IMG/VR virus record: IMGVR_UViG_3300045988_178360
Length of the DNA: 53,669 bases
Origin: a virus
Strand: one strand, 5' to 3'
Shown here: positions 1-53,669 of the stretch, piece after piece
Position numbering within the stretch: the first letter of the stretch is position 1
Layout of the letters: each line of letters starts with the position of its first letter
The notes under the pieces: generated by a model
Seen by the model: only the letters and a program-made list of their open reading frames with translations
The model's database searches: none
Told to the model about the DNA's origin: nothing
Program-made: the position numbers and the translations under genes

Positions 1-93
1 CCAGATTTTCAAATTTTCAGAAAATGAAATTTTCCAGTTTTTCAGAAAACCGAAATTTCCAGAATTTCCAGATTTTCAAATTTTCAGAAAATG
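1..93. repeat. Left copy of terminal direct repeat (~90 nt) built from TTTCCAG/TTTTCAG-type short motifs
   Basis: nt 5-93 match nt 53577-53666 almost base for base. Internally it is made of tandem ttttcag/tttccag units. The adjoining unique sequence differs at the two ends. Confidence 0.8.
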
Positions 94-101
94 GAAATTA
101 C

Positions 102-731
102 CTAATCATCAACTAAGTAATTTCCAGACCTCCTAAACCCATATAATGGATAATAAGACCTTACAAAAGACTTAAAATCCACACAATTGAATAAATCATG
201 ATGTTTGAATAAATACTCACAAACATCATCATATCCTTCAACATTTAACTCTTCATCATCAAACAAATCAAAGAAGACATCCAAGACATCAAATACTTCT
301 TCACTATCAATATCATCACCTAACACTGATTTGAGATGCATTTCAACATCCCATTCGGCAATACTGTTAAATTGTTCGAAATCAAAGACACAACTTTCAC
401 CAGTCCCATCACAGAAAATGAAACAAGCTGCTTCCTGATTATTGTCAAGTTTTGCTGACAATTCATTATCAATGTCAACAAAATCAAAATCACACTCTTC
501 ATTTTCAAGACTGTAATCCAAAACATCTACCATCAATGATTCATAAGTATTATGAACCCCTACGAAATCAAAACAATCAAATTCCTCAAGAACAGATGAA
601 ACACCTGCTTCAAGAGTTTTTTCATGGTAACGACCAATTTTACATTCTTCTTTACTCATGCACCAATCCACAGGCACATATCTTGATTCTTTCACATTAT
701 AGACAGTTTTAATAAACATATTTAAACACAT
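102..731 (-). CDS. Extremely acidic protein (209 aa, many D/E and repeated DFD/FDF/VLD motifs); candidate DNA-mimic anti-restriction protein
   Basis: The ORF lies next to the genome end. Its translation is dominated by Asp, Glu and Phe (DFDFVDIDNE, FDVLDVFFDLFDDEE). There is no recognizable enzymatic motif. Confidence 0.5.
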   Translation of the reverse strand: MCLNMFIKTVYNVKESRYVPVDWCMSKEECKIGRYHEKTLEAGVSSVLEEFDCFDFVGVHNTYESLMVDVLDYSLENEECDFDFVDIDNELSAKLDNNQEAACFIFCDGTGESCVFDFEQFNSIAEWDVEMHLKSVLGDDIDSEEVFDVLDVFFDLFDDEELNVEGYDDVCEYLFKHHDLFNCVDFKSFVRSYYPLYGFRRSGNYLVDD

Positions 732-813
732 CCTTTAAACAAAATTTTTGAATTGCAAACTACAACTCGTTACTAATACTATGCACATACTACTATATAA
801 ATGTTTCCCAATA

Positions 814-975
814 AAAAGTCTTTACTTTTGAGCATATAGTTTTGCAAAAGTCTTTACTTTTGAATGTATATTTTTCAAAAAGTCTTTGCTTTTGAGCATA
901 TAGTTTTGCAAAAGTCTTTACTTTTGAATGTATATTTTTCAAAAAGTCTTTGCTTTTGAGCATATACATTTATAC
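814..975. repeat. Five tandem ~32-bp iterons (aaaagtctttRcttttgaRYRtata...), two alternating variants
   Basis: Direct reading shows units at 814, 847, 879, 911 and 943. They sit between two minus-strand genes, upstream of the acidic protein gene. Confidence 0.85.
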
Positions 976-2053: not shown

Positions 2054-3058
2054 ATTATGTTTATAATACTTAATAAAATAGTACTAGAAACATTTATATA
2101 ATACTAATTATAAAGTAATAGTAACTACTAAGTAGTTATAAAAAAATAAGGACGTGTTAATATATGTATTTAAACAATATGTTATGCCGACAAGAAGTAG
2201 GCATAGCCGCAATAAAAAATTTTATAAATAATAATCAAGATAATATAAATGTTATTTTTGAGGATAACATCATAAAAATTTATAAGTACATCAATATACT
2301 TGACGATACATTTATAAAATGCTTAACAGTACAATGTACTGTTAAGCAATATGATATATTATATGATATGCTAATACATTATTAGCATATCAATTTTTTT
2401 TAAAACACCATGTAACATATATTTAACAACCACCATAATAAAAAAAGGATCCAACCCACCACCAACAATAATATATTATACACAACAACAACAACCACCA
2501 ACAGCAGCAGTAACAAGCAGCAACAGCTGCAGAAAAAAATATACTATATGCATGCATCAGATACAAGCACCGCCCCCCCGTGTTATCATGCTTACTATAA
2601 CTGTTTAATGAATGAATCAGTTAATTAAATGTGTTGTTGTCAAGTCAACTGTTAATTTAATTAGTCAAGTAGTACTGTTTAATTAAAGATAGGTTAAGTT
2701 AATGTATATGATACTGTTATATATAGATAGCACGGTTAAGATAGCTTAAGCTTGACCTGCTTAAGTGGATCAATAACATATAGATACTACCGCAGCAGTA
2801 GAAAAAAATACTATATACTTGTATAGTATATCATATCTTATATCCGACACGCTACAACAAAAAATTAAACCTCATAAAAAACACCTTAAACAAGCATCAA
2901 CGCCATAAAACACCATGATTTATTCAAAAAATCCATAAAAATATTTTATAAGTTTCCTAGGATAATATAAAACCGCTGGGATTGGTCGGTGTGTGGTTTG
3001 TGTGTTTTTTGGGGTGGTTGTGTATTTGTTGTTTTTTATGGTGGGTGGCTCTGCCATA

Positions 3059-3076
3059 CCCCCCCTGTGGGGGGGG
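3059..3076. other. Perfect G:C hairpin, ccccccc-tgt-gggggggg
   Basis: Seven C, a tgt loop and eight G, read directly. A further G9 run lies at 3273-3281. Confidence 0.8.
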
Positions 3077-3370
3077 TGTGGTTGCGGGTTTTTTATTTTC
3101 TTTATCAGCATCTTATACGAAATATTATATATTATTTTTTTATATATAGGGGTATGTGTATTTATAGAACTTATGATAAATATATAGTTCATATAGTTAT
3201 TATTTTTTTTAATGTACATATTTGTACATTGGTACTCTTTTATGTACACTGAGGATAAAATAGTAATTTTTTGGGGGGGGGTGTGGTGTTTGACATTTTT
3301 TTGACGCAAATTGGTGAAAATTGATGTGTGAGCTTCTTTTCTTGTTTAGGGGCTTCTCGTGGGTTTTCGT

Positions 3371-3558
3371 TGTGTCAGTGTTGTGTCGGTTTGTGTCAAA
3401 TATGGTGTGTTTTGTGTCATGTTGTGTCATTTGTGTTGGGTTTTGTGTCAGTTTGTGTTGTGTGTGTCAGTTTTTTGTGTCATGTGTGTCAGGTTTGTAA
3501 TACTACCTTATGGATAAAGTATTACTTTTTGTGTTAAGTTAAGTCAATTATGTGTCAG
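3371..3558 (+). repeat. Ten dispersed direct copies of TGTGTCR (gtgtcag/gtgtcat/gtgtcgg/gtgtcaa)
   Basis: Copies sit at about 3371, 3382, 3392, 3413, 3423, 3444, 3463, 3477, 3485 and 3551, spaced roughly 10-20 nt apart. This is the typical look of arrayed protein-binding sites, as for terminase small subunit or integrase arm sites. Confidence 0.75.
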
Positions 3559-3582
3559 AGTATGGTTCGAATCCATACTGAC
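3554..3582 (+). other. tRNA 3'-half-like minihelix (gtcag-ag-TATGGTTCGAATCCATA-ctgac): candidate att core or packaging signal
   Basis: It contains the canonical T-arm GGTTCGAATCC with a 5-bp stem, enclosed by a second 5-bp stem. No full tRNA can be built from the upstream sequence. Confidence 0.5.
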
Positions 3583-3601
3583 AGTTAGGAATAAAAAAAA
3601 T

Positions 3602-3841
3602 ATGCTAAGGGAGGGTGTAGTAGGAATGAAATCATATAAGAATATTTCAAGAATTGTAACAGTACTATCGTTTATTGCAATATTCATAGTCACTAATAAA
3701 GATTTCTTAATAAGTAGTGTTCCAATTGAACATCAAACATTAGTTCAATTAATAGTATTGGTTGCTGGTTTCTTTGTCACACAGTTCAGTGAAGAGAAAA
3801 GAGTTGTTAGGGCTGAAGAATTAGTTGAGGAAGCTGCATGA
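3602..3841 (+). CDS. Small membrane protein (two predicted hydrophobic helices)
   Basis: ORF with hydrophobic stretches VTVLSFIAIFIV and LIVLVAGFFV. It is the first gene of the plus-strand arm. Confidence 0.4.
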   Translation: MLREGVVGMKSYKNISRIVTVLSFIAIFIVTNKDFLISSVPIEHQTLVQLIVLVAGFFVTQFSEEKRVVRAEELVEEAA

Positions 3842-4086
3842 GTGATAATTGTGTGAATGAAAATCGTATAATTAGACTGGAGGAAAGATTGGATAAAAAA
3901 CATGATGAGATTGATTTTCTTAAAAAAGAATTGATTCAAGATCGTGAGGAGTTAAATGATGTTCTTGTTACTTTAACTCAATTATCCACTACTTTAAATA
4001 CTTTGAAGTGGATTATTGTTGTTTTTATTTCTGCTTTTGGTGGTATTGTGGTGTTTCTTTTCCAGGAATTAGTTAAATTAATTTAA
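3838..4086 (+). CDS. Small coiled-coil protein with C-terminal transmembrane anchor
   Basis: ATGA overlap with the previous ORF. The N-terminal half is charged and heptad-like. The C-terminus is WIIVVFISAFGGIVVFLF. Confidence 0.4.
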   Translation: MSDNCVNENRIIRLEERLDKKHDEIDFLKKELIQDREELNDVLVTLTQLSTTLNTLKWIIVVFISAFGGIVVFLFQELVKLI

Positions 4087-4111
4087 TATATATGGGGGGT
4101 GTTGTTTTTTT

Positions 4112-4570
4112 ATGCCTCGTAAGGATAGAAGGTATAAGCCTCGTAAAAATATGGATGAGGTTCCTGAGATTAATCCTAGGTCTTATAAGTTGAATAAAAC
4201 ACTTACTAAGAAGATGTGTAAGTATATTGAGGAAGGGAATTATATTAGTACGGCTTGTAAGTTGTGTGGGATTGAGCGTCATACTCATTATGATTGGATG
4301 AAGTATGGTAAAAAAGGTATTAATCCGTTTAAGGATTATTATTTGGCTATTGAGGAGGCTAAGGCTAGGGCTGAGGCTTCGATGGTTGATGTTGTGACTA
4401 GTTCTGCTTTGGTTGATGGGAATGTTGGTTCTGCTCAGTGGTGGTTGGCTCGTGTTCATCCTGACCGTTGGGCTAAAAAAGACCGTGTGGAAGCTAAAGT
4501 TGATACAAGTCAGAAGATTGAGATTGTGACTGTTTCACCGGAAAGTAATGATAAAGAAGATGAATCTTAG
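4112..4570 (+). CDS. terS: Terminase small subunit (putative)
   Basis: 152 aa with a basic N-terminus and an HTH-like region. It sits immediately upstream of the large terminase and downstream of the repeat array. Confidence 0.5.
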   Translation: MPRKDRRYKPRKNMDEVPEINPRSYKLNKTLTKKMCKYIEEGNYISTACKLCGIERHTHYDWMKYGKKGINPFKDYYLAIEEAKARAEASMVDVVTSSALVDGNVGSAQWWLARVHPDRWAKKDRVEAKVDTSQKIEIVTVSPESNDKEDES

Positions 4571-4599
4571 TGATTAAGATTTTTGAAGGGGGTGGTATA

Positions 4600-5816
4600 A
4601 TGTCAGCACAATGGAAATTATCAGAAAAACAAGCACAGTATATTGATGATGATTCTAATGAACTTCTTATTGAAGGAAGTGCTGGTTCTTCGGCAAAACT
4701 ATATTTGCTTGTAGTAAAGTGATTTTTTGGGCTATTAATAATCCTAATAGTCGTATTGGTGTTTTTAGGAAGACATTGCCTGCTTTGAAGAAGACTAGTT
4801 GGTTGGAGATTCGGAAGTTACTTGACAGTCATGGTATTGAGTATGAGGAGAATCGTTCGGAAGGAGTTATCATTTTAAGTAATGGTGCCACTATGAGTTT
4901 TAGTGGTTTGGATGACTTGCAAAAGGTTCGTTCTTTGAATTTGGATTATATTTATATTGAACAGGCTGAGGAAATTGACCGTGATACTTATTTGGAGCTT
5001 AAATTAAGGTTGAGGGGTTCTGGTGCTGATGTGACTTATAGGCAGGCTTTATTGGTTGTTCAGCCAAGTGAGCCGTCCCATTGGATTTATGAGTATTTTC
5101 ATAATATGCATTATGGTAAAATAGTTCATTTTAGTTTTCGTGAGAATCCATTTTTGCCTGAAGACCATAAGGAGTATTATGAGAGGTTGAAAGAGATTGA
5201 TTATGATGCTTATCGCCGTTATAGCCTCGGTGAGTGGGGTATGTTGTCCAGTCTTATTTTCAAGAATTGGGATACTGATACTCGTGAAACTTTCAATTAT
5301 TATAGTGTGGGTATTGATTTTGGTTGGGCTGTGCCGTCCGCTGCATTGTTAATTGGTTTCTATGATAATGAACCGTATATTATTGATGAGATTTATGAGA
5401 AAGAGTTGACTACTGAAGAATTATTTGAGTTGATTATAATTATGTTGGCTCGTAATGGTTTGGGGATTAGTGATATTGATTTATGTTTTGGAGATGCTGC
5501 AAGTCCTGACCGTATTATGAATTTAAATGAATGGGGATTGTATACTGAACCATCTGTTAAAGATGTTCAGGCTAAAATAAACACGGCAAAGTTGACTCAA
5601 ATTCATATTAATGAAGATAAATGTCCGAATACACTTAAAGAGATTCAGTCTTATACTTGGAGAAAGAATCGTGATGGAACTATTCTTGATGTTCCTGTTA
5701 AATTGAATGATCATGCTATGGATGCGATGATGTATTGTATTTATGGTATGTTGGGGGCGAATAGTCCGTATAAATGTGATGGTACTGTTGATTTGGATGA
5801 GGTGAGTTTTTATTAG
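4600..5816 (+). CDS. terL: Terminase large subunit, interrupted by a frameshift at about 4687-4695
   Basis: The frame starting at ATG 4600 encodes KLSEKQAQYIDDDSNELLIEGSAGS, the typical TerL N-terminus leading into a P-loop, and then hits a stop at 4720. The GKT codons (4692-4700) are in the other frame, continuous with ORF 4719-5816. That ORF ends with a DHAMDAMMY nuclease-type motif. Confidence 0.6.
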
Positions 5817-5871
5817 TTTTTTAGAGAATTTTAAGGGTAGGTTTACTGCTAAGAATATTGAACCTAATTCT

Positions 5872-7077
5872 ATGTTTAATGTGGGTTTGGATGATGTAAC
5901 TGTTTCAAAGAATGGGGAAATCCCACAGGATTGGATTGAATATTGCCCTCCTAAAGTTAATCCCACTATTAAGAATCGTAGAAAAGCAGCTCACTTCCCA
6001 GTAGTGTATGGTATTATCAATAATTTGATTTTGAAGGCTATTGCTACTTTAACGATTGATGGTACTGATGATGAGGCTGTACAGCATATTCTTGACATGG
6101 ATAAAATATGGAATTTGAAGGGCATGTGTTATGATGGTGCTTGGAAGAATATTGTTGATGGAGAGGCTTTTTATGAAGAAGTTACTGTTAATGGTCATGC
6201 TGATTTGAGGAGTTTGGCTTTTGATGGTGAGAAGTATCTTATTCGTAAGTTATATGATGATAATGCTAATTTATTAGGGTATATGCAGTTGGTTGCTGTT
6301 AATAGTCCGATTCCAAAGAATTGGGATAAATTAGAGTTTTGGGAGTTGTATCAGAATAAGGACATTAAAACAGTTTCTTTTAAAGCGGAGGATATTAGTA
6401 ATCCGATTTTTATTGAGATTGATGGTGTTGGTCAGTCATTAGTTAAGAATGTGATTGATCCGGCTTATGAGATTGAATCGTTGAATCGTATGTTGCCGGC
6501 GATTGTGCATAAGTCTGCTAATGTTATGGTTTTAACTGTTGGTAATGAGCATCGTAAAGAAACATCTATGAGCAAGGTTCGTAAGCAGGAGGTTGCTGAA
6601 GACTTAAGTGATTACCATAAAAAAGGAGTTTTGTTGATTCCGTATGGTATGGAGTTGGATGTTGTTGGAGATAATGTTCTTCCGAAGGTTGAGGATTATA
6701 TTAAAGCTTTGAAAAGTCAAATTTATGAAGGTTTAATCACTCCAGAATCCACTTTCAGTAGTGAGTCTTCTAATCGTAGTACTGCGGAGGTTCAGTTGAC
6801 TTCTGAATCTAATGGTCATGTGTTGCTTATTCAGTTTTTACAAGAGTTCCTTAAAAGATGGTTGGAAAGGGATTTGATTAATCGAGAATTATCATTGATT
6901 GGTAAACCTGAAGGTAGTGTGTGGATTAATTTCCAAACTGGTGACCATAATCTTGATAATAATTATTTGGAAACTGATAATAGTATTGAAACTGAAGAGG
7001 ATACTGTTGAGAATGAATTAGATTCATCTGATGATGATGAGGAGGTAGATGATGGTTCAGGAGATTCAGTCGACTGA
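5872..7077 (+). CDS. Portal protein (putative)
   Basis: 401 aa, directly after terL, with a strongly acidic C-terminal tail (SSDDDEEVDDGSGDSVD) typical of portals. Confidence 0.55.
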   Translation: MFNVGLDDVTVSKNGEIPQDWIEYCPPKVNPTIKNRRKAAHFPVVYGIINNLILKAIATLTIDGTDDEAVQHILDMDKIWNLKGMCYDGAWKNIVDGEAFYEEVTVNGHADLRSLAFDGEKYLIRKLYDDNANLLGYMQLVAVNSPIPKNWDKLEFWELYQNKDIKTVSFKAEDISNPIFIEIDGVGQSLVKNVIDPAYEIESLNRMLPAIVHKSANVMVLTVGNEHRKETSMSKVRKQEVAEDLSDYHKKGVLLIPYGMELDVVGDNVLPKVEDYIKALKSQIYEGLITPESTFSSESSNRSTAEVQLTSESNGHVLLIQFLQEFLKRWLERDLINRELSLIGKPEGSVWINFQTGDHNLDNNYLETDNSIETEEDTVENELDSSDDDEEVDDGSGDSVD

Positions 7078-7780
7078 TGAGTTTTATTTAGATGATTATT
7101 TACCTCTTGATTTCGCTCCGAATGATGCTTATGATTCTGAGGAGCAATTTGTGATATTAATGTGCTTGTTATTGCTAAAAGAGTATTATGAGGAGTATAG
7201 TAAAACACCACTTGAAGATTTAATCAACACCATTGAAAAGGATATGGAAGAGTTAAACACCAAATTATCCACAGAAGGAATGGATTATATTAAACAAGCT
7301 GTGGATAAAACATTTTCTTCCGAATTAGATTCGTATAAGATACCGGAGAACACCATTTCACCAAATTATAATGAATTAGTTATTTTAGCTGGTTTTCAAG
7401 CATTAGTTAATCAGTTAAGAGATGATTTAAAAGCCAAAGCATTATATTATGCGGAGAATTTAGGTAAAACACCATTTGATTTGAAACCGAACTTCAGAAG
7501 AGCAATTAAAAGGATTAATGATGTTGTAGGTACTGGTTTGGTTAATGCAAAGGAGAAATCTCATCGTGAAGTTTCTAAATTTGTTTATGGTGAAAATGCA
7601 TTGTTTTACTGGGTTTGTAAAATGGATGCTAAAACCTGTGCTTGGTGTAGAAGTCAGGCAAGGTCTGAACCACGACCTATTGACGAGTGGGAGTTAGACC
7701 ACCCGTATGGTAGATGTACTTTGAAACCTGTTAAGGAAGATTTTTCAAGTGATTATAAATTATTGGTTGGGATAGTATGA
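7049..7780 (+). CDS. Minor head / head morphogenesis protein (SPP1 gp7 / Mu F-like, putative)
   Basis: The position after portal and the C-terminal CAWCRS...DHPYGRC motif are reminiscent of that family. Assignment is by eye only. Confidence 0.35.
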   Translation: MMVQEIQSTDEFYLDDYLPLDFAPNDAYDSEEQFVILMCLLLLKEYYEEYSKTPLEDLINTIEKDMEELNTKLSTEGMDYIKQAVDKTFSSELDSYKIPENTISPNYNELVILAGFQALVNQLRDDLKAKALYYAENLGKTPFDLKPNFRRAIKRINDVVGTGLVNAKEKSHREVSKFVYGENALFYWVCKMDAKTCAWCRSQARSEPRPIDEWELDHPYGRCTLKPVKEDFSSDYKLLVGIV

Positions 7781-8628
7781 TTACAATTTTCAAAACCGGT
7801 GAAATTAAGTATCCGGAATCTTTGAATAAACCAGTTAAATATGATATTGATTTTTTAAAGAGTATTGCTTCAAGCACAGCATCTGCCAAGATTACTCGTG
7901 AGCATTCTGATGATGTGCTTGGTGTTTTAAGTAATTTTGTTGTTGAAGATGGTTGTTTGAAGGCTGATGAACCTGAAGGTCTTGAGTTGAAAGGTATGGG
8001 TTTTAGTCCAGTTTTTGAATTTGATTTACTGGAGTATGATTCATATTTTAAACCAGTGAATGGTGTTATGACAGAGATTGGGTTTACAAAGACACCAAGA
8101 AGCCAAATTGTATATAATAGTATTGGGGCTTCGAATGGAGATGATAATATGTCTGATGATGCTTTAAGAAGAGTCTTGCAAGAGAAAGAAGACTTGGTTA
8201 AGAAAATGGGAGTTTTAGAGAAGGAAAGAGATTCTTATCAGAAAATGTTGGAAGCAAGAGATGGTGAGATTGAGAAAATTAAAAATTCCTATTCCGATGT
8301 TGACAATAAATTAAAAGAAATCGATGCTTTGAAGGAGAAAGCAGATTTATATGACTCATTACAAGCTTCTCGTAAACAAGAGTTGATTAATGAGCTTGTT
8401 GGTGGAAATAAGGATTTAGCAGAGAAGTATGAGTCTTTTACTTATGACCAATTAACATTCTTGAAAGAGAATAAAGTTCCAACTAATCCTGGTCAAGGAG
8501 TACCATCTGTGGGAGCTACTGGATTGGATATTGAAGGAACACACCCATCATCAAATAATGATGATGAGTATTCTGATGATGAATTTAAAGCAGATTATAA
8601 AGCTTTGTTCGGAGTCGATGTTGAATAA
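7777..8628 (+). CDS. Scaffolding protein (possibly fused to prohead protease region)
   Basis: Long charged coiled-coil segment (EKEDLVKKMGVLEKERDSYQKMLEARDGEIEKIK...) upstream of the capsid gene. Confidence 0.45.
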   Translation: MITIFKTGEIKYPESLNKPVKYDIDFLKSIASSTASAKITREHSDDVLGVLSNFVVEDGCLKADEPEGLELKGMGFSPVFEFDLLEYDSYFKPVNGVMTEIGFTKTPRSQIVYNSIGASNGDDNMSDDALRRVLQEKEDLVKKMGVLEKERDSYQKMLEARDGEIEKIKNSYSDVDNKLKEIDALKEKADLYDSLQASRKQELINELVGGNKDLAEKYESFTYDQLTFLKENKVPTNPGQGVPSVGATGLDIEGTHPSSNNDDEYSDDEFKADYKALFGVDVE

Positions 8629-8667
8629 ACTAAAATTAAATTAAAAATTTTAAAGGAGTTATAGAAT

Positions 8668-9162
8668 ATGGTTAAAATTCAAAACTACGACCCTTATGAA
8701 ACAGATATTAAATTTGATGTTGAAGAAGGAGATGTAACTGTAAAAACTGGTTTTGCAGACTTTGGTAAAGATGATGTACTCTTCTTTTCCAAGGAAATTA
8801 AAAAAGGAGATTATGTGGCTTTAGATATTACCAGTATGACTGTTAAAAAAGCAGCTAAAGCAGATAAAATCATTGGTCAAGTGATTGATGAACCTGCTTT
8901 TAAAGGTGGCAGACCTAAAGAAGACACTACTTCAGGTAATTACACTAGAAGAGTTGCAACTGTAAGGTTATGGGGAGATTATGCTCATTCTGTACAGTTA
9001 AAAGCAGAGAATAAAGCTATTGCAATGGGAGATTCTGTTGCTTATGAAGGAGATAATGTATTCGATAAGGCAACCACTGCAAATACCACTATTGCATTAG
9101 AAACTGCAGAAGCTTTGAAAGCTCCTAAAGTATTGGTTTTATTCGGTTACAGAGGTTTATAA
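8668..9162 (+). CDS. Head protein of unknown role (164 aa)
   Basis: ORF between the scaffold and capsid genes with a strong RBS-like AGGAG upstream. Confidence 0.35.
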   Translation: MVKIQNYDPYETDIKFDVEEGDVTVKTGFADFGKDDVLFFSKEIKKGDYVALDITSMTVKKAAKADKIIGQVIDEPAFKGGRPKEDTTSGNYTRRVATVRLWGDYAHSVQLKAENKAIAMGDSVAYEGDNVFDKATTANTTIALETAEALKAPKVLVLFGYRGL

Positions 9163-9178
9163 GGAGGTTTGATGATAT

Positions 9179-10054
9179 ATGTCTATAATTACATTAAGTG
9201 CTGAAAAAGCATTAAGAAAAGAGTTCATTGAAAGAGCAATTATCACTAAAATGAACCCGCAATTAATTTTTAAGGATTTATTCCCAGTTGTTGATTTAGG
9301 TGGTTCATCCACATTCATGTTCTATCGTGATGATGAATCTGCAGAAGATGACATTCAAAAAGGAGTCATGAGTGAACCATTAGAGATGAGTGAATTAGGT
9401 GCAATGTCTAAGATTAAAGTATCATCTATCAGTAAAGAACTTGGAGATACTTATCAATTTGGTTACAGTATTGAATTCTCTGACAAAATGAAAAGAGAAA
9501 ATGGTTTCATTGATGAGGTAATGAGAGCATACGACAGAGCAGCTTATGGTATGGCAAGGAAAATTAATTTAGATATTTTCAATGCTATTGACACTTTCGC
9601 AGCTGCTGATCCAATTACTTTAAATGATGGGGCTTGGAAAACATCTTCAAAAATCAATGAAGATATTATTGACATGAAAAAATCATTTGAAGGTCAAGTT
9701 GGTTGGGATTATACTTTAACTGATTTATTCACTCCAACTGACAATTACTACGAAGTTCAAAAATTCTACTCCGCATTAGATACTTTTAACCCATCAAATA
9801 CTGAAGGAACTAAATTAACTAATGTTAAAACAGTTATTCCTAAAGGAACTGTTTACGGTATTGATAAGAACATTAAACCATTAACCATTTATAAAAATAT
9901 TGATTCAGACCATTCTACTGTTGAAGGTGGTTTAATCAATGTTAATGTATGGGAAGACCCTAAGTTCCCATTCAAACATCATATTGAGTTATGGGCTGAA
10001 ATGGGTATTGCAAGCAAACATCCAACCGCCATGTTAAAACAAACTGGAGTTTAG
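9179..10054 (+). CDS. Major capsid protein (putative HK97-fold)
   Basis: 291 aa in the canonical position after the scaffold, with a strong AGGAGG RBS. Size fits a capsid protein. Confidence 0.45.
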   Translation: MSIITLSAEKALRKEFIERAIITKMNPQLIFKDLFPVVDLGGSSTFMFYRDDESAEDDIQKGVMSEPLEMSELGAMSKIKVSSISKELGDTYQFGYSIEFSDKMKRENGFIDEVMRAYDRAAYGMARKINLDIFNAIDTFAAADPITLNDGAWKTSSKINEDIIDMKKSFEGQVGWDYTLTDLFTPTDNYYEVQKFYSALDTFNPSNTEGTKLTNVKTVIPKGTVYGIDKNIKPLTIYKNIDSDHSTVEGGLINVNVWEDPKFPFKHHIELWAEMGIASKHPTAMLKQTGV

Positions 10055-10060
10055 GTATTT

Positions 10061-10231
10061 ATGGGTTTGAAATTTAAATACCGTGATTTATGGTACCATG
10101 GTAAATTAGTACCTAAAAGAGTTTATGAGCAGTTAGAAGACTTGCAAAAACAGATTGATGAGTTGAAAACTGCTCAACAAACTAACCAAGACAGTAGTAA
10201 AGAATCTGAACCACAAGAAGGCGGTAGTTAA
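10061..10231 (+). CDS. Small protein (56 aa), paralog of the next ORF
   Basis: Not in the supplied track because it is under 60 aa. It reads MGLKFKYRDLWYHGKLVPKRVYEQLEDLQKQIDELK and shares YEQLEDLQKQI[DE]E with 10232-10501. Confidence 0.4.
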   Translation: MGLKFKYRDLWYHGKLVPKRVYEQLEDLQKQIDELKTAQQTNQDSSKESEPQEGGS

Positions 10232-10501
10232 ATGCCTTTGAAGTTTAGGTTTGTGGAATTGTTCAAAGGAAGATTCCCAATTCCTAAATTTCTTTATGAA
10301 CAATTAGAAGATTTGCAAAAGCAGATTGAGGAACAACACATCGTTAAAGAAGATGTTAAAATAAACAAGACTCAATTAACTAAAGCTTTCGGTAAACCTG
10401 AAGAGTTTAGAGGAATGGGTATTGTTCGCAATCCTGAAGCAGTTTATTTAATTGTTTCAAATGGGAAGAATTTTGAAAAGTTTGAATTTAAAGAAGTTTA
10501 G
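10232..10501 (+). CDS. Small protein (89 aa), tandem paralog of 10061-10231
   Basis: FLYEQLEDLQKQIEEQ motif, with a TAAATG junction to the previous ORF. Confidence 0.45.
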   Translation: MPLKFRFVELFKGRFPIPKFLYEQLEDLQKQIEEQHIVKEDVKINKTQLTKAFGKPEEFRGMGIVRNPEAVYLIVSNGKNFEKFEFKEV

Positions 10502-10513
10502 GGAGGGATTAGT

Positions 10514-11293
10514 GTGTTGAGAATGGAAGAATATTACAAGGTTTTGCATTTTCTTGAGTTTGATGGAGTTGATAGGATTTACCCTTGTGAGAAATATTTT
10601 TTAGATGGTGAGGGGAATAATGTTCCGTATACTGGAGAGTTATTATGGGAAACTAATCGTGAAACTTTTTCAGGGATAGATTATGTTACTGTTTTATTGG
10701 AATCTGATAAGAGTTTCTCAACATCCGACCTTCGATTTGAATTGTCCGAATACTTGCAAGGTTATAGTCCAGTTCTTGTTTTAAATGTGGAAGACCCTGT
10801 AACTATTCCGGAGAACACTCCAACTAAAGTTGTGTTTAAGTTGAAGAAGTCCCAGCAAATGGTGGATTCTTCAAGGAATTTAACTGGGATTAGAAGTTGT
10901 CATTTAGTTGCACCTGAAGAGGATAATTATATTATTCATGAGATTGCGTTTCGTAATGATAATACTATGTATACTCTTGAGCAGTTAGATAGGTTTATTG
11001 AGAATGGTAGGTATTATATTGCTTCAAGATTGCATATTACTGAAGCAGAATTGCCTTTTGAATTAAAAGACCATGTTTATACTGCTGCTGCAGGGTATGC
11101 TTGGTTGAGTGTATGGGAATTTGAAGCAAGAATCATGAATGATGAGCAGAAAAATGCTAAATCTTATGGTAAGTGGTTGTTTGCAGAAGTAGACCAAGCA
11201 ATAGCTGATTATAAAGAAATGAAGGGAATAGCTGATGATGATGAGTTATTCGTAATGGATGATTTAGTTACTTACACTTGGTCTAAATGGTGA
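10514..11293 (+). CDS. Head-tail connector / adaptor candidate (259 aa)
   Basis: Position between the capsid and tail genes only. Confidence 0.3.
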   Translation: MLRMEEYYKVLHFLEFDGVDRIYPCEKYFLDGEGNNVPYTGELLWETNRETFSGIDYVTVLLESDKSFSTSDLRFELSEYLQGYSPVLVLNVEDPVTIPENTPTKVVFKLKKSQQMVDSSRNLTGIRSCHLVAPEEDNYIIHEIAFRNDNTMYTLEQLDRFIENGRYYIASRLHITEAELPFELKDHVYTAAAGYAWLSVWEFEARIMNDEQKNAKSYGKWLFAEVDQAIADYKEMKGIADDDELFVMDDLVTYTWSKW

Positions 11294-11299
11294 TTTGAG

Positions 11300-11752
11300 A
11301 TGAGTGTTTGGGAGCAGATTCTTATTGATTTAAGAAACATTATACAAGACTCTGAAACTTTTCATGATGTTGATGTGTATTATGATGAATCGGAAATGAA
11401 TCCGAATATTTCTTTACCAGCAATATCATTTCGTGTTGGTTTGAAAACAACCATATCATCAAAACCAGAGTGCAGTAGGTATAAAAGAGATTTGGAAATC
11501 AGATTGCATACTAAAACATTGGATAAACGAGAATTACAATCCGAATTATATGATTATGAGGAAGCATTAATCCGCACAATAAATCAGGCGAAATTATCTC
11601 ATAAGATAGGGGATTTTTATGATATAAAAGACACTGGTTCGGGTAAATTAAGTGTTTTAATGTTTAATGCAAGGAAAGAAGCAGGGCAAATGAATGAAAC
11701 ATTCTTTTCAAACTTATTAAAGGTTAATTTTGAGGTAGAGTATGAAATTTAA
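11300..11752 (+). CDS. Head-tail joining / tail completion candidate (150 aa)
   Basis: Position only. Confidence 0.3.
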   Translation: MSVWEQILIDLRNIIQDSETFHDVDVYYDESEMNPNISLPAISFRVGLKTTISSKPECSRYKRDLEIRLHTKTLDKRELQSELYDYEEALIRTINQAKLSHKIGDFYDIKDTGSGKLSVLMFNARKEAGQMNETFFSNLLKVNFEVEYEI

Positions 11753-11954
11753 ATATATTGGTGAAAACAACACCTATTGCTTGGAATTATTAGCATATAA
11801 TATAATGAGCAAAAAAGATAATTTGAAGAAAGGTCAAGTTATAGAAGTTCCAGATGAAAATGCAGTACTTATAAATGCATTAAATGCTTCTGGAGTATTT
11901 GTAAAACTTGATTTCAATAAAAACACCACTAAAAAGAATAAAAAAGGAGAATAA
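11742..11954 (+). CDS. Small structural-module protein (70 aa)
   Basis: Short ORF overlapping its neighbours within the operon. Confidence 0.3.
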   Translation: MKFKYIGENNTYCLELLAYNIMSKKDNLKKGQVIEVPDENAVLINALNASGVFVKLDFNKNTTKKNKKGE

Positions 11955-11959
11955 ATAAT

Positions 11960-13075
11960 ATGGGAGAATTAGCACCATCACTAACTTACCATTATTGGGG
12001 AATGGGATATGATGACTCATCCAAAGGGATGAAAGTACTCACCAGAGGAACAGAATTCGACCATCAAAAAGAAATAACTTTTGAAGATGATGAAGGACAC
12101 ATGGGTACTGGAACTACTAAGATGAGTGCATATCGTGCAACTGCAACTGCAGCCCCATCATGGACAGATAAAACAAGGTATAAAGAAGGTTGGGAGGATA
12201 TATGGTACTTATTATTAGGTTCTGAAGATGCAGTTTCACATAAAGTGAGAAAATCAACTGTAGATGGAGCAACCGGAGTATTTGATTATATCTTCGCACA
12301 AAATGCAACCAATCCACAAGACCCATTATTCTGTACCGTGTTTAATGGTTTTGCAAAAACAACTAAAGATGCATTTGTGTATGAAAACTGTTTACTTAAC
12401 GAGTTTGAATTAACTGGAAGTAATGAGGAAGCTCCAACTTACACCGCAACTTTTGCAAGTAATTATCCGAAGTTTAATCAGCCTAATCCTGCAAGAGTTT
12501 TCCCGAAAAGAACAGTATTCACAAAACCATCTGAAGTAACCTTGTATATTGCCCCTCAAGGAGAGTATACTGCGGAAACTGATTTGGAGCAATATAAATA
12601 TCCTTGTTTCATTGAATGGAGTTTGAATGTTAATAACAATGTTGAAACTCAACCATGTTCAAGTGATGATTTCGGTACTTCAACTAAAGTATTAGGCGAC
12701 CGTGAAGCAGAGTTCAGTGCTACTGTACCATGGACTGAAGCAACCAAATTCCTTGAATATCAATTCATGGGTAATGATAAGAATGCTACAAATGTATCTG
12801 AAGAAAATGATATTAAAACAGTTTGGATTGTTATGAAATCTGCGGAAATATTATCTGCAGAGGGAACTGGAACTGGTAAATATTACACCACCACAATTAA
12901 AATACCTGAAATTGTTTTAACTGCAGGGGACTCTGACCAAGCAGGTGATGAAGCAAAACAAATTGTTTTAGAAGGTAAAATACAAGAGAATGGTACCGAT
13001 AGTTTCATTGAAGCTGAAATCCGTACTGATTTAGCAAACCTCAATGTTGGAGTCGCTCCAACAAGTTCACCATAA
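11960..13075 (+). CDS. Major tail protein candidate (371 aa)
   Basis: It sits immediately upstream of the chaperone pair and tape measure, with a strong RBS. Confidence 0.4.
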   Translation: MGELAPSLTYHYWGMGYDDSSKGMKVLTRGTEFDHQKEITFEDDEGHMGTGTTKMSAYRATATAAPSWTDKTRYKEGWEDIWYLLLGSEDAVSHKVRKSTVDGATGVFDYIFAQNATNPQDPLFCTVFNGFAKTTKDAFVYENCLLNEFELTGSNEEAPTYTATFASNYPKFNQPNPARVFPKRTVFTKPSEVTLYIAPQGEYTAETDLEQYKYPCFIEWSLNVNNNVETQPCSSDDFGTSTKVLGDREAEFSATVPWTEATKFLEYQFMGNDKNATNVSEENDIKTVWIVMKSAEILSAEGTGTGKYYTTTIKIPEIVLTAGDSDQAGDEAKQIVLEGKIQENGTDSFIEAEIRTDLANLNVGVAPTSSP

Positions 13076-13132
13076 AAACATGGTGAATTTTTATATTTTT
13101 TTTAATTAATTTTATAGGATAGTAAGTATATT

Positions 13133-13711
13133 ATGTCATTTAACGCAAGGAAAATAAATTTCTGTGGAAAAGAAAGAAAATTCAAAAGATGTCCGAACAG
13201 AACAATAAAAGATTTCCAAAAAAGAATTGAGAACATACAAGAGGAATTAGAACCATTAACCGATAAAAATCGTGAATTCCAATTTGCTTCTCAAGAAATA
13301 AATGATGAGATAGAAACAATCAATAAACATATTGAATTATTAGAAAAGTTGGATGAACCAACTGATGAAGAAATCAGACAATCTTTAGATTTAAACCAAT
13401 CTAAAGTACAGTTGCAGAAAGAATTGCATAAGTTAATCAATGATAATGAGTTGAGTATGAGGAATGAGAAAGATTTCTTTAAAGATATTGATAAAAAATT
13501 AATGGATACTTATGCGGAATTTGCAACACTTATTTTTGATAAATTTGAGTTCGAAGAGTTTGAAGAAGAAGCAGACTCAACAGACCTTGTTATAGCACCT
13601 CGTTTAAGTGAATTGTACCGTTTATGTACAAGTGGAGCTAAACAAGCAGAAGTGGATAAAGTTTATCGTAAAATTATAAAAGACAATATTGAATCATCAT
13701 TTCAATCCTGA
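13133..13711 (+). CDS. Tail assembly chaperone (G-like)
   Basis: Acidic coiled-coil protein directly upstream of the tape measure. It overlaps the next ORF, which is in a different frame. Confidence 0.5.
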   Translation: MSFNARKINFCGKERKFKRCPNRTIKDFQKRIENIQEELEPLTDKNREFQFASQEINDEIETINKHIELLEKLDEPTDEEIRQSLDLNQSKVQLQKELHKLINDNELSMRNEKDFFKDIDKKLMDTYAEFATLIFDKFEFEEFEEEADSTDLVIAPRLSELYRLCTSGAKQAEVDKVYRKIIKDNIESSFQS

Positions 13712-14015
13712 TGATGATGAGATAACACAAGATAAAAAAGAAGATAGCAAACCTGTATCTCAAATGATAGAGGAAGCTATGTTAGATGAATATTTTTTAC
13801 TTGTAAGAAGAATTCCGGGGATTTCATTATCTCCAAAGGAATACTGGGAGTTGGATACGTTCACTACACAGTATTTGCTTGATTTGGAGAAAGAAATAAT
13901 GAAAGAAGAGGAGAAGTCTTATAAAGGTAAGAAATCTCATAATTATACAGAATTTTCTGATAAAGACAGTCCTGAAATGGTGGATATTGTAATGGAATTA
14001 ACAGAGGATGCATAA
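13689..14015 (+). CDS. Tail assembly chaperone frameshift extension (GT-like)
   Basis: Overlaps the 3' end of 13133-13711 in the +1 frame. The candidate slip site is tca-ttt-c at about 13697-13703. Confidence 0.4.
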   Translation: MNHHFNPDDDEITQDKKEDSKPVSQMIEEAMLDEYFLLVRRIPGISLSPKEYWELDTFTTQYLLDLEKEIMKEEEKSYKGKKSHNYTEFSDKDSPEMVDIVMELTEDA

Positions 14016-14409
14016 AAATATGTTTAGTTTAGATACAACTCCATGGAAACAATGGTTAGAACATACTAAAGAAGCAGTTAAGCAGATGGATATGTTAATG
14101 GAGTCTAAATATGCAGTAACTATAAGAGAGGTTACTACTCCATTAGTTCCATTGAAAACTGGTAAATTAATTGGGAGTTTCATTACAGATTTAAGCAGTA
14201 CTTTCCCAGTTACTGAAATGACTTTTGGATACTCAGCATATGATGAGAAGAGTGGTTTTAATTATGCTGAATATCAGCATGATATTATTAAAACACATCA
14301 ACATCCAATTCAAGGAGTTCAATTTTATCTCCGTAAAGGTATTTATCATGCTCAAGAAACTGTTTTTACAGAGATTGAAGAGGATTATTTAAGCTGTTTT
14401 CACATTTAA
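14008..14409 (+). CDS. Hypothetical tail-module protein (133 aa)
   Basis: ORF between the chaperone and the tape measure. Confidence 0.3.
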   Translation: MHKNMFSLDTTPWKQWLEHTKEAVKQMDMLMESKYAVTIREVTTPLVPLKTGKLIGSFITDLSSTFPVTEMTFGYSAYDEKSGFNYAEYQHDIIKTHQHPIQGVQFYLRKGIYHAQETVFTEIEEDYLSCFHI

Positions 14410-14463
14410 ATGTGGAGGCAGTATTTTTTTTAAACTTTTTTTTAAAGGAGGTTATGGTTTAGT

Positions 14464-20199: not shown

Positions 20200-20287
20200 C
20201 AAAACACACATAAATACCCTTTTTACATATATATGAGGCTATCTATTTAAGGTAGTTTCTTCAACTTTTTTTAGGAGGAAAAACAAC

Positions 20288-25295: not shown

Positions 25296-25297
25296 AA

Positions 25298-27220: not shown

Positions 27221-27353
27221 AATAAAAAATTTTTTTGATTAATATGTATAATTTAAAATGCGACCAAGAATGTAAACATGATAAAAACGAAGAAGTAGAA
27301 AAATGTTGCTACTACCGCAACAACAAATGCCTATTAAAAGGAAGTGATAAAAA

Positions 27354-28172: not shown

Positions 28173-28323
28173 ATTAATGTAGATAAGAGAGTATGTTTTA
28201 TGTATGATATACTCTCATCTATCATTTAATTAAAATACTACTTAATTAAACACATACTTACAATCAAATTTATTATTTTAATCATACTTATTTTAAATTA
28301 TATAATGGGAGGTAAAGGTATTC

Positions 28324-28932: not shown

Positions 28933-28940
28933 AGTAGACA

Positions 28941-32066: not shown

Positions 32067-32072
32067 TTTATT

Positions 32073-36814: not shown

Positions 36815-36818
36815 AACA

Positions 36819-37861: not shown

Positions 37862-37890
37862 CTTAACCCCTCTTTTTTATTCTGTATTCG

Positions 37891-51385: not shown

Positions 51386-51709
51386 TTATATATAGAACAC
51401 AAAATCAAGTTCATTATTGAAATTAACCAATATTTCAAACTTAATTTCATATTCCTCAAAAATCGCACTGCTAAAACAAGTAATCTTCTTCATACCAGTT
51501 TTAACAAGTACTTGTGTTCCCCTTTTATCTACTTTAACAGAAATAGGAGTCACACCGAATTCATCCTTGAAAAGCTCATCGAACTTTTCACCAATCCACT
51601 TTACATTGCCATGCATTGCTTCACAGTTCTCATCGTAAAGTTTATTGAGTTCTTTACAATTTTCCCTGTAAATATGCACTGTTTCCTTATTAAAAACAAT
51701 ATCCGCCAT
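51386..51709 (-). CDS. Hypothetical protein (107 aa)
   Basis: Balanced composition. Preferred over the overlapping low-complexity plus-strand ORF. Confidence 0.35.
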   Translation of the reverse strand: MADIVFNKETVHIYRENCKELNKLYDENCEAMHGNVKWIGEKFDELFKDEFGVTPISVKVDKRGTQVLVKTGMKKITCFSSAIFEEYEIKFEILVNFNNELDFVFYI

Positions 51710-52704
51710 TTCACATCACCTGATGCAAAAGAAGATAGCTGTCGCTAACATAAAAACAGTTAACATAAAATAGATGACTCCAGAATAGTTTATCCTAAAA
51801 TTAAAACTATCCTTTTGAGGATAAAGACCATGTTTATTGTCCACCCTCCAAAAATCTGCTAAAGCAGTTAAAAAACCACTCATACCTTTACACTCTCCTT
51901 TTTAGTCAGAGAATGTGCATTTAAATTAGCTTTAGCTTCCGCTAACAGTAATTTAAACAATTTTTTATCTTGCTCTGATATAACATAACCTGAAATAGGT
52001 GTTACAGAGCCTTGTTTTAAATAATACCTTCTTACCACCTTCCAATTCTAATATACACAAAAAAACAAGTTATATGAAAGCTTCCACACAATCATACAAA
52101 TTTTTCCTATGTACACATACATATTTATCAAAACAAGTATATAAACTTTACCCCAATAGATAATTATATATACAAAAAATGAATAAATTATAACTTGCAC
52201 ATAATTTTCTGCTTTTTTTATACAAAAATATAAAGCTACCGTTCAAAAAAAAATTATTGTGCCTTGAGTTTAAAGATCATGTTTTTGTGAGTACTGTATC
52301 TTCCACAACAGGTTTGAAAGCAGAAACATGACTAAACTCATGTACACTAAAACACTAACAAAACCATAAAAAACATATCATCTATAATTTCCAATAAAAC
52401 ACCCTCAATTAAAACAATACTTGCAAGTGCAAGTACTCATTTAATCAACCATTCTTTTAATTAAAACACTTACTTCAAACACACCTTCCCACACAATGAC
52501 AAAATATAAATACTAACAAAACACAAAAAAAGATAATATGTGCAGAGTACCGCACATGTGATTAATAAATACATAGTTTAATCACGTCCTTTAAAAAAAT
52601 TTTTGGTGAAGTAGCTTTTGTGAAAAATGTTTTATACTTTTCTACATCTGTAATTTTACATTTTTCACCTACTTCGTTTTTTATTTTTCATAAATATAAC
52701 CTTG

Positions 52705-52956
52705 TTATTTTTTCAGAAACAACCTTGTTAAAATTGTTTCAATAGTTTCACCTTCTGTAATAGCATATTCCTTAATAAAAGAAACTGCTTCAGGTGAAAT
52801 AACCACATTTCGCCTGAACTGACCTTTTTCAAAATCAGAAACAGGAAAAGCCTTGAGAAGGCGGATAATGCACTTCTCAAAACTTTCATTTTCACGTTTT
52901 TGGGAGCTGATATAATGATACAACTCCATATTCACTTTAATAGGCATATAGCACAC
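52705..52956 (-). CDS. Possible ribbon-helix-helix-type regulator (83 aa)
   Basis: N-terminal IKVNMELYHYIS beta-strand then helix pattern. First genes of the minus-strand arm. Confidence 0.3.
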   Translation of the reverse strand: MCYMPIKVNMELYHYISSQKRENESFEKCIIRLLKAFPVSDFEKGQFRRNVVISPEAVSFIKEYAITEGETIETILTRLFLKK

Positions 52957-53199
52957 CTATTCATACTCAAATTTTGATAAATCATCAATTAAATCATCAA
53001 TGATTTTTTCAAAATCTGCATCAGGAGAAATATCCCATAATTCCAAATCTCTCCCATTTTTAATCCACAAATGGGATTGATTTACAGTTGCAACAAAAGC
53101 ATCCCATTCTTTAGGACAGGTATCTTTAAAGAATAAAGCTACTTTCCTACTTTTAACATCAAATGATGTATCAAATTTAATTCCTTTATACTCAAACAT
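52957..53199 (-). CDS. Hypothetical protein (80 aa)
   Basis: ORF only. Confidence 0.3.
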   Translation of the reverse strand: MFEYKGIKFDTSFDVKSRKVALFFKDTCPKEWDAFVATVNQSHLWIKNGRDLELWDISPDADFEKIIDDLIDDLSKFEYE

Positions 53200-53205
53200 A
53201 TTTAA

Positions 53206-53487
53206 TCACTCCTTTTTAATTTTTAAACCGTCATGGATTTCCAATACTTCTCCTGAAGCCATGCCTTCAGTTAATTCCAATAAATCTAACTGTTTTGTTT
53301 CTTCAATGAACTCTGCAAAGAATTCATTGTACTCCTCATCTTGAAAACTCCAACTTGACTGCTGAAGCACCCCAGTAGGTTCACCATTATCCCCCACCCA
53401 TTTCAACTCCCCATCATCATAGACCCAGAATTGAATATAAGATTCTTTATCATCTTCATTTTTTATCAAAGTATATAATTCACACAT
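53206..53487 (-). CDS. Hypothetical acidic protein (93 aa)
   Basis: ORF only. Confidence 0.3.
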   Translation of the reverse strand: MCELYTLIKNEDDKESYIQFWVYDDGELKWVGDNGEPTGVLQQSSWSFQDEEYNEFFAEFIEETKQLDLLELTEGMASGEVLEIHDGLKIKKE

Positions 53488-53576
53488 AAATAATCACTCC
53501 TTAATAACAATTTTTCATATTTCAAATATATATAATTTTCCAGAAATTCATGATCCAAAAATTTCCAGTTTTTCAG

Positions 53577-53669
53577 AATTTTCAAATTTTCAGAAAATGA
53601 AATTTTCCAGTTTTTCAGAAAACCGAAATTTCCAGAATTTCCAGATTTTCAAATTTTCAGAAAATGAAA
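53577..53669. repeat. Right copy of terminal direct repeat (or circular-contig overlap)
   Basis: Same sequence as 1-93, seen by direct comparison of the window ends. Confidence 0.8.

Follow-up and report, generated by a model that had tools for sequence, protein, structure and literature searches.

The pac site of phage P1 consists of four plus three TGATCA/G hexamers arranged around the cut, ori and crr of P4 carry TGTTCACC iterons that are bound by the winged-helix domain of the alpha protein, the SaPI origin has two iteron sets flanking an AT-rich region, and the lambda origin is likewise of the iteron type. Archaeal chromosomal origins contain origin recognition box (ORB) or mini-ORB repeats bound by Orc1/Cdc6 around an AT-rich unwinding element. 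To our knowledge, no packaging (pac) site, origin or late-gene switch has been defined at the sequence level for tailed viruses of methanogens. In SPP1, the direct repeats of pac are grouped in sets that cover promoters as well as the beginning of terS, and the small terminase subunit (TerS), a ring of helix-turn-helix (HTH) motifs, selects ~100 bp of bent DNA (PMC4737164). The understanding of archaeal tailed-virus assembly is still almost entirely a matter of comparative genomics, as stated in the MSTV1 paper (PMC11375127). Here we analyse IMG/VR virus record IMGVR_UViG_3300045988_178360, a stretch of 53,669 nucleotides (the window), and within it a non-coding region, the hub (2386-3625), which holds a phased array of TGTGTCR repeats. 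The array is probably a protein platform in the leader of the packaging operon, with all repeats on one face of the helix, and we tentatively propose that it serves as a pac site.

The window derives from a temperate Methanobrevibacter tailed virus with 94-96% identity to Caudoviricetes sp. vir249 (BK063678); for positions 2388-17420, 17687-37467 and 40500-51550 the figure is 95-97%. The vir249 genome is circular (51,140 bp), comes from the human gut and has a Methanobacteriales host, and in its record the equivalent stretch (1090-2572) is devoid of any annotation. Because its ends share an exact 29-nt overlap and are redundant by ~96 nt relative to other assemblies, the window represents one closed circular genome of ~53.6 kb, and most assemblies of this virus are free circles of that size. 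The late genes point rightward and extend from 3626 as far as the integrase gene (34779-35957), the early and replication genes point leftward (35943-53487 and 102-2053), and the hub fills the gap that separates the early arm from the late (packaging) arm, bearing out the proposal of the first-pass annotation that a 1.2-kb non-coding control region lies where two divergent gene arms meet. All the features listed in that annotation are located where it placed them and exceed chance; several of their interpretations had to be revised. Among close relatives, from which 33 hubs (92-100% identical to the window) were collected, indels of 1, 2, 20 and 42 nt were observed, mechanically called open reading frames (ORFs) of the hub had no family match and no ORF was conserved, and an Rfam search of 2300-3700 returned nothing in the hub even at E-values up to 5. 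Since 20-nt indels break any frame and Rfam yields no match, the hub is non-coding and does not correspond to a known RNA. A coding origin of the array, in the form of a GTG-initiated ORF (3359-3517) for a Cys/Val-rich peptide, was ruled out by the 20- and 42-nt indels and by the placement of the sites in different frames.

The array itself can be described as follows:

3370-3491, plus strand: main array of nine exact TGTGTCR sites and three degenerate ones (~3403, ~3433 and ~3454)

These ~12 sites occur once per helical turn, with T-tracts about every 21 bp. The 13 TGTGTCR matches in the 53.7-kb window are close to the 10.8 obtained in shuffles, so the signal resides in clustering: ten sites, all on the plus strand, fall within the 187 nt from 3371 to 3557. 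For the nine sites between 3371 and 3485 the best period is 10.4 bp, with R(10.5) = 0.87, and only 3 of 5000 random placements were as good; the ten sites initially noticed are indeed a non-random, DNA-level element. Among the 33 close hubs the array measures only 104, 106, 127/128 or 169 bp, its copy number changing in steps of ~21 or 42 bp, that is, about two helical turns. The helical phasing, the maintenance of phase across the spacer and the 21-bp copy steps identify the array as an element that acts at the level of DNA, not RNA.

To follow the array beyond the close relatives, TerS homologues were traced down to 36-50% identity (labels beginning with L denote contigs of relatives, proviruses or host loci). 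In every lineage examined (at least 15), an array lies 60-620 nt upstream of the terS/terL operon and in the same orientation as the operon. Array, leader and late operon keep the same order and orientation across the virus family, the repeat motif is replaced between lineages, and the left-hand neighbours of the hub differ or are inverted. In L147, L149, L151 and L156 the array ends ~25 nt from the start codon, leaving no room for a downstream promoter, which places the array in the operon leader. The spacing is equally regular: L147 has 6+6 ATTTTGTGTCAC units exactly 21 bp apart with a 63-bp gap, L151 has 6+5 sites with a 73-bp gap, L149 has 6+5 sites at 20 bp, L156 is spaced at 21 bp, and the arrays of L139 and L152 have a period of ~10.4 bp. 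PhiF3, with 33% TerS identity, has no comparable array, and an IMG/VR scan for three spaced TGTGTCA copies gave mostly unrelated tandem repeats among the matches listed. The motifs are distributed among lineages as follows:

TGTGTCA: window, L139, L147, L151, L152
TGTATCA: L132, L154, L155
TTGCAAG: L134, L149
CCCCAGTTGA: L156
GAGTACA: L138
TGTGCCA: L148

The AT-rich relatives L128, L132, L134, L138, L139, L147-L152 and L154-L156 share the following order of elements:

1: tandem repeats rich in AC
2: box of the GATCCC..AGAAA type
3: T-run, then G-run
4: ACTGTT array
5: AT-rich block (ACATATATAAATATCAAGTATA consensus) and a T-run after it
6: conserved leader with TTTTCG at its end
7: phased array, frequently divided into two blocks
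8: first late gene

In the window, the elements between the centre of the hub and the first late gene, other than the array, are:

3100-3262, plus strand: AT-rich block, a putative late promoter region with operator
3139-3146, plus strand: TATA-like TTTATATA
3175-3196, plus strand: GATAAATATATAGTTCATATAG, the block conserved family-wide with the consensus given above
3203-3210, plus strand: T8 run
3211-3230: TGTACA palindrome AATGTACA-N4-TGTACATT, with a third copy at 3242-3249
3273-3281, plus strand: G9 run, as first annotated; G7-G9 in close relatives, G8 in L139 and L128, absent from L147 and L132
3283-3369, plus strand: conserved leader with TTGAC-N7-TTGACGC, GGTGAAAATTG and, directly before the array in all lineages, (G)TTTTCG
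3495-3527: AAGTAWTACTT pair, a degenerate copy (3495-3505) and an exact one (3517-3527) with centres ~22 bp apart, then T5
3551-3585, plus strand: minihelix, with the tenth TGTGTCA (3551-3557), stems 3553-3557/3579-3583 and 3560-3565/3573-3578 and loop TTCGAAT (3566-3572)
3609-3616, plus strand: ribosome-binding site GGAGGGTG of the first late gene, which starts at 3626

The role we consider most likely, while holding it tentatively, is that of a pac site onto which TerS loads; origin iterons come second, an operator array third, and the remainder of the probability belongs to functions not listed here. Pac site and origin, both suggested in the first-pass annotation, thereby stay the two best candidates, whereas its third suggestion, an attachment site (attP), is refuted. 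On such a loading platform, a ring of the HTH-bearing small terminase would contact one repeat every turn or every second turn of the helix, bend or wrap ~125-300 bp of intrinsically curved DNA and thereby place TerL where a headful series is to receive its first cut. With the platform situated in its own operon's leader, bound TerS would in addition reduce late transcription, in the way seen at pac of SPP1, while the AAGTAWTACTT palindromes could be operators of a separate dimeric regulator common to the integrase promoter. The pac reading leads on account of the invariant linkage to the terS operon, the array preceding terS/terL in at least 15 lineages, and of the repeat precedent in SPP1. 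Repeated or bent DNA that could engage a TerS ring is indicated by the phasing at 10.4-10.5 or 21 bp, kept across blocks, and by the T-tracts at ~21 bp. Moreover, the assemblies are circular with starts at scattered positions, which, together with a TerL of the Terminase_6N/Terminase_3 type, makes headful packaging plausible. TerS also has a domain of a suitable kind, as far as the weak, sub-threshold HTH matches given below indicate.

Several observations nevertheless weigh against TerS as the binder. The predicted TerS recognition helix is the same in the window and L139, which share a motif, and has three changes in L138, which has a new one. But near-identical helices in L156 (NYNTFLSYMRKG, motif CCCCAGTTGA), L152 (NYNTFLQYMQRG, GTGTCA) and L132 (NYNTFMDYMHKG, TGTATCA) accompany three motifs, and those of the window (ERHTHYDWMKYG) and L147 (NYSTYTGAMSRG) both accompany TGTGTCA; the recognition helix does not covary cleanly with the repeat motif. 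The HTH of SPP1/SF6 TerS showed little sequence specificity (PMC4737164), so that model would not lead one to expect a sharp 7-mer. A ring of fixed geometry would not easily accommodate a spacing that is one site per turn in certain lineages and one per two turns elsewhere, two small genes intervene between array and terS, and a 6+6 arrangement with an AT-rich spacer in the middle would suit an origin just as well.

In an origin, NTPase monomers would bind the repeats as iterons via their C-terminal winged-helix-like domain, form complexes on both blocks and open either the AT-rich spacer or the block at 3100-3262, after which primase and PCNA would act. We regard this as possible but less likely than a pac site. 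Six and 5-6 repeats at 20-21 bp surround a 40-65-bp AT-rich spacer, with phase kept, in L147, L151 and L149, where repeats at integral turns thus adjoin an AT-rich element; the AT-rich block of the window is located 110 nt leftward of the array. Viral gene products include a DUF5906-type, SF3-type NTPase (625 aa) with a Walker A motif, a separate CHC2-zinc-finger primase, PCNA and nucleases, and no Orc1/Cdc6 was found among the viral proteins scanned. The NTPase is conserved across the virus family (35-49% identity) and has a conserved C-terminal segment, L..E.I.V.VGK......N.Y.LN, and a winged-helix-like C-terminus. On the other hand, the C-terminal helix differs between the window and L208, both of which have TGTGTCA, and only four or five genomes provide both protein and array, most pairs being lost because contigs break in the tandem repeats of the hub. 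The array is also 7-8 kb away from the NTPase gene, yet always abuts the packaging operon, and TGTGTCA is unlike the archaeal mini-ORB core TTCC...GAA (PMC1904270).

Strand composition bears on the same question. The cumulative GC skew has its minimum at 2957 and the keto skew at 2974, with AC-rich sequence at 2401-2600 and 2851-2950 and GT-rich sequence at 2951-3500. The flip from AC-rich to GT-rich described in the first-pass annotation is therefore real, but it is sharp, at ~2960, and not spread over 2560-2980. Both the GC skew minimum and the AC/GT mirror persist in L139, in which the left-hand genes are on the plus strand, and this would favour an origin; on present evidence, however, the skew is inseparable from gene orientation and cannot be taken as the replication signature that it had been suggested to be. 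Other repeat arrays (813-966 and 53558-95) lie nearer to the replication genes and could be the origin instead.

The first of these (813-966) is a tandem repeat of AAAAAGTCTTTACTTTTGAGCATATAGTTTTC, 32 bp x 4.8 (or 64 bp x 2.4 at 98% identity), upstream of an early gene for a 209-aa protein; it is partly conserved in vir249 and is an iteron-like alternative origin candidate. The second, at 53558-53669 plus 1-95, consists of dense TTTCCAG/TTTTCAG(AA) units with 8- and 25-bp periods between two leftward early genes; the assembly end overlap falls within it, and the segment is absent from vir249.

A more specific version of the origin reading, in which the hub would be the first sequence-defined origin of an archaeal tailed virus, with two six-iteron blocks each taking up one NTPase hexamer around the AT-rich spacer, seems doubtful to us. 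If true, an origin in the packaging leader would mean that the same nucleoprotein complex couples replication to late transcription and packaging, and the exchange of motifs between lineages would set apart replication or incompatibility groups of gut methanogen viruses that circulate together.

The position of the array between the TATA-like block and the first late gene, reaching the start codon in several lineages, would also suit an operator or roadblock, on which a viral or host protein would polymerise cooperatively along one face of the leader, silencing the late operon in the lysogen or in a carrier state, or activating it late in infection. Ribbon-helix-helix proteins use tandem direct repeats as their operators in plasmid R1 parC/ParR, pSM19035 omega and SSV1 F55. 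Each unit carries a T4-T7 tract on the sense strand, T-tracts are archaeal termination signals, and read-through of such termination-like tracts would need control. The AAGTAWTACTT and TGTACA palindromes would be further operators in this scheme, and both the window and vir249 have an identical AAGTATTACTT in the interval from attP to the integrase gene. Twelve phased sites over 125-300 bp are, however, far beyond the needs of repression, and no candidate regulator gene was identified, and we rate an operator array as rather unlikely, behind pac site and origin iterons.

Whatever the array does, the palindromes appear to be DNA sites in their own right. A "nested stem" had been annotated here, but the GTAATACT..AGTATTAC hairpin really comprises the two palindromic copies of AAGTAWTACTT. 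Whereas the window, L138 and L148 have the GTAATACT...AGTATTAC pair in inverted form, it is direct in L132, L150 and L154; as its orientation differs between lineages, it is the sequence that is conserved and not a hairpin. Exact copies of AAGTAWTACTT occur at 3517 and 34714, and also within genes at 30479 and 32222. The copy at 34714-34724 is the one upstream of the integrase gene, and in vir249, too, the palindrome is found at both the late leader and the integrase promoter, making these sites candidate operators of a dimeric regulator acting at the two places.

Three remaining roles, namely a partition centromere for an episomal state, a signal that positions host archaeal histones and an RNA element, appear improbable when taken together. 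In the RNA version, the minihelix would be cut by RNase P or tRNase Z in a GU-rich leader with repeated UGUGUCA, and cleavage would mature the late mRNA. The free circular state of most assemblies would be compatible with a centromere, but no ParA/ParM-type gene was seen among the viral proteins scanned. T-tracts and GTGTC alternate at 10.5 bp, a pattern that resembles histone positioning signals; a sharp, lineage-specific motif nonetheless favours a sequence-specific binder over histones. For an RNA element speaks the minihelix itself, 11 bp with a 7-nt T-loop-like loop, 45 nt before the ribosome-binding site, whereas phasing at 10.5 or 21 bp and 21-bp copy steps are properties of DNA, and the minihelix, which most lineages lack, contains a 2-nt bulge, reaches only z = -2.1 and displays no covariation.

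The minihelix hairpin (5 + 6 bp around the bulge, -11.9 kcal/mol) pairs, in its outer stem, the tenth TGTGTCA with an inverted repeat copy, CTGACA. It is exact in 32 of the 33 close hubs, the remaining genome having TTCGAAC instead of TTCGAAT (loop T to C), and is absent from L128, L138, L132 and even L139, whose array is likewise built of TGTGTCA. At the corresponding position, L138 carries four copies of the repeat in inverted orientation. The array was originally described as ending in this structure, but the minihelix sits in a ~110-nt stretch that distant relatives with the same array lack, and it is confined to the clade of the window. ARAGORN and Rfam (at the gathering threshold, and at E up to 5 on 2300-3700) found only one tRNA, tRNA-Leu at 38645-38732, with which the minihelix has nothing in common beyond the T-loop consensus. 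It is most simply regarded as a clade-specific inverted pair of repeat copies, probably not a tRNA relic.

Such a relic was central to the idea that the hub is attP, with the GGTTCGAATCC minihelix as a tRNA-derived core and the TGTGTCR repeats as arm-type integrase sites. The T-loop-like 11-mer does occur only once in the window (3564-3574, inside the minihelix), and ~0.2 matches with up to one mismatch are expected from shuffles. Virus-host junction contigs, obtained from a metagenome scan with the viral NTPase and from exact-protein look-ups, already refute this reading, to which we assign next to no probability. The attP core TATTCCTTATGAGT (14 bp, 34665-34678, plus strand) lies 100 nt upstream of the integrase gene and 31 kb from the hub. 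It is identical to the host over the 14 bp, and the L214 junction reads from host-left through the core into window 34679 onward. The host site, attB, is a 218-nt spacer between MTS-type and SPOUT methyltransferase genes upstream of the uL3 operon of Methanobrevibacter, reading ...ATATATATTCCTTATGAGTATAAAAGTTGG... (host loci L275 3854-3867, L280 and L282), and is thus intergenic and not a tRNA. In line with this, the search of host genomes suggested by the first-pass annotation gave 0 exact matches of the minihelix 20-mer GGTTCGAATCCATACTGACA in 185,579 species genomes, and no tRNA model matched. The expectation that the hub would lie at provirus ends also failed, since the L286 provirus (host-left, then window 51683..53651, 2..972 and 2305..11570) contains the whole hub, minihelix included, without interruption.

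One junction does fall in the hub. In L218 the same host site is joined to viral 2825-2830, AGTATA within a hub palindrome, and this could be counted in favour of a hub attP; however, it has only 6 bp of host identity and is most readily explained by a deletion that joined attR to a pseudo-site. In L286 the same host site is joined to viral 51683-51690, inside an ORF, with 8-bp identity. L286 and L218 are probably provirus deletions between attL or attR and a pseudo-site, with losses of integrase and replication genes in one and of late genes in the other; their R segments are only 92-97% identical. L214, apparently a third deletion derivative at this attB, jumps from window 34679 to ~39067 and lacks the integrase gene through ~39 kb. 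An insertion of linear DNA, in which 2830 and 51683 would be the ends of a 109% headful inserted by end joining and a packaging end would fall in the hub, was dropped in favour of deletions anchored at attR or attL once L214 had revealed the canonical attP. None of the three junction sequences was found in IMG/VR, the integrase scan of species-representative genomes yielded no provirus, and the exact integrase look-up returned one free 53.6-kb contig only. The attP/attB pair (34665-34678) provides an integration site for this virus group and a polymerase chain reaction assay for lysogeny.

A further contact with host DNA was seen in L296, an 80-kb contig in which, at ~7540-7712, host cas2-cas1 and the following sequence are joined to the virus at window ~53510. 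This junction is at the edge of the TTTCCAG array and could be an integration, a chimera or something else.

The left half and centre of the hub contain the following elements:

2386-2580: left boundary block TTTTTTTTAAAACACCATGTAACATATATTTAAC, then AC-rich, indel-rich CAA/CAG/CCA-type repeats (2440-2535), ending in C7 (2573-2579)
2599-2760, plus strand: almost invariant central block with WACTGTTWA at 2599, 2647 and 2673, ACTGTTAT at 2713 and GTTAA/TTAAG repeats
2808-2831: palindromic segment ATACTATATAC-TT-GTATAGTATAT, preceded by an A7 run
2953-2974: conserved box TTTCCTAGGATAATATAAAACC, at the exact skew switch
2976-3100, plus strand: GT-rich stretch with T6G4 (3005-3014) and the C7-TGT-G8 hairpin (stem 3053-3065/3070-3082)

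Long AC-rich tandem repeats, with units of 13, 16, 18 or 5-10 bp, also form the left hub edge in distant relatives:

L150: 1-140
L152: 1-350
L154: 1-140
L148: 1390-1570

Genome-length contigs end inside them and so mimic termini. Contig ends clustering 1.4-1.8 kb upstream of terS were considered as genome termini and rejected, being assembly breaks in these repeats (L150, L152 and L154). Among close hubs, the centre (2580-2980) is, like the minihelix, almost invariant, and the C and G runs vary in length. Relatives have phased ACTGTT arrays, for example L150 with TAACTGTTAT x7 at 10 bp. WACTGTTWA is over-represented genome-wide, with 22 copies against 5.9 expected, a count attained in 0 of 100 shuffles; most copies are on the coding strand of late genes, and the hub copies (2599-2681) are for this reason a mild local excess only. 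L139 has a different palindrome after an A8 run at the place equivalent to 2808-2831. Boxes like TTTCCTAGGATAATATAAAACC are visible by eye in L139, L128, L138, L152, L154 and L147, by inspection and with no statistic attached, and, as regards the GT-rich stretch, a TTTTTTGGGGGAGG-type box is seen in distant relatives.

The C7-TGT-G8 hairpin (C7 3059-3065, TGT 3066-3068, G8 3069-3076) is present as annotated, with a stem that extends to 13 bp (-27.7 kcal/mol, z = -4.4; 0 of 200 shuffles fold as well), but it is not a fixed feature, as runs and spacer vary among 94%-identical relatives. Four of the five G or C runs of at least 7 bases in the window fall in 2573-3281. Just left of the hub, within a 73-aa ORF (2164-2385), lies a perfect palindrome, TTAACAGTACA-A-TGTACTGTTAA (2323-2345), which also produced the only other weak Rfam hit, a chance miRNA match.

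To the right of the hub, the product of the first late gene is a membrane protein of 71 aa; after this gene come an XhlA-like gene, terS (4112-4570) and terL. TerS matches phrog_4102 (E = 2e-26), with weak, sub-threshold Pfam matches to HTH_Tnp_IS630, an HTH transposase domain, and Sf6_terminase. The terL frame is broken by a 2-nt (TC) insertion within the Walker A codons (window 4602-4722 and 4719-5816): frame 0 reads ..IEGSAGSSAKLYLLVVK* and GKTIFACSKVIFWAINNP carries on in another frame, where L138 and L139 read IEGSAGSGKTLFACSK in a single frame. Since this form is common to vir249, L128 and at least 10 independent ~53.6-kb assemblies, a sequencing error is unlikely, which points to recoding (frameshift or slippage) or a split TerL. 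In relatives, GIY-YIG endonuclease or DNA methyltransferase genes are inserted beside terS, either upstream or in the terS-terL gap; the window has none:

L128: 4237-4536
L139: 3106-4212 and 4657-5391
L132: 1895-2572

The tRNA-Leu (anticodon TAG, minus strand) is located among the early genes of the window, and the integrase is of the tyrosine type according to the vir249 annotation.

An early/late intergenic region with iteron-like repeats is in kind ordinary phage anatomy. Its anatomy and conservation are read directly from the genomes, and binding, cutting and initiation are the predictions that follow from them. As a compact, family-wide and synthesisable target of 125-300 bp of phased repeats, in which natural motif variants provide built-in specificity swaps, the hub lends itself to tests of binding, packaging and replication in viruses that infect the dominant methanogen of the human gut.

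Among known systems, the array resembles the SPP1/SF6 pac site (pacL-pacC-pacR, box a/b/c) in having short direct repeats at the head of the terminase operon that overlap promoter or leader, and headful pac sites in general in having two blocks around a central segment and bent or phased DNA suited to a ring of TerS HTH motifs (PMC4737164). It differs from the pac sites of SPP1, SF6 and P1 in that its ~12 sites are more numerous and more regular, that two small membrane-protein genes precede terS and that the host is archaeal. With the iteron origins of P4, SaPI and lambda it shares direct repeats at about two turns, two blocks and an AT-rich spacer, and the virus, similar to P4 and SaPI, has an SF3-like NTPase with a winged-helix-like C-terminus, here along with a separate primase. 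In contrast to these origins, the array is not beside the initiator gene but fixed to the packaging operon in all lineages, and the clade of the window has one-turn spacing and no central spacer. The combination of repeats with an AT-rich element likens the hub to archaeal ORB origins, and its G-runs are reminiscent of ORB G-strings; unlike ORB/mini-ORB, however, the repeats are direct and not inverted, without a TTCC...GAA core (PMC1904270) or an Orc1/Cdc6 among the scanned proteins. Finally, this temperate virus with its tyrosine-type integrase conforms to lambda-type attP systems, with the difference that its attP, at 34665-34678, recombines with an attB that is intergenic and not a tRNA.

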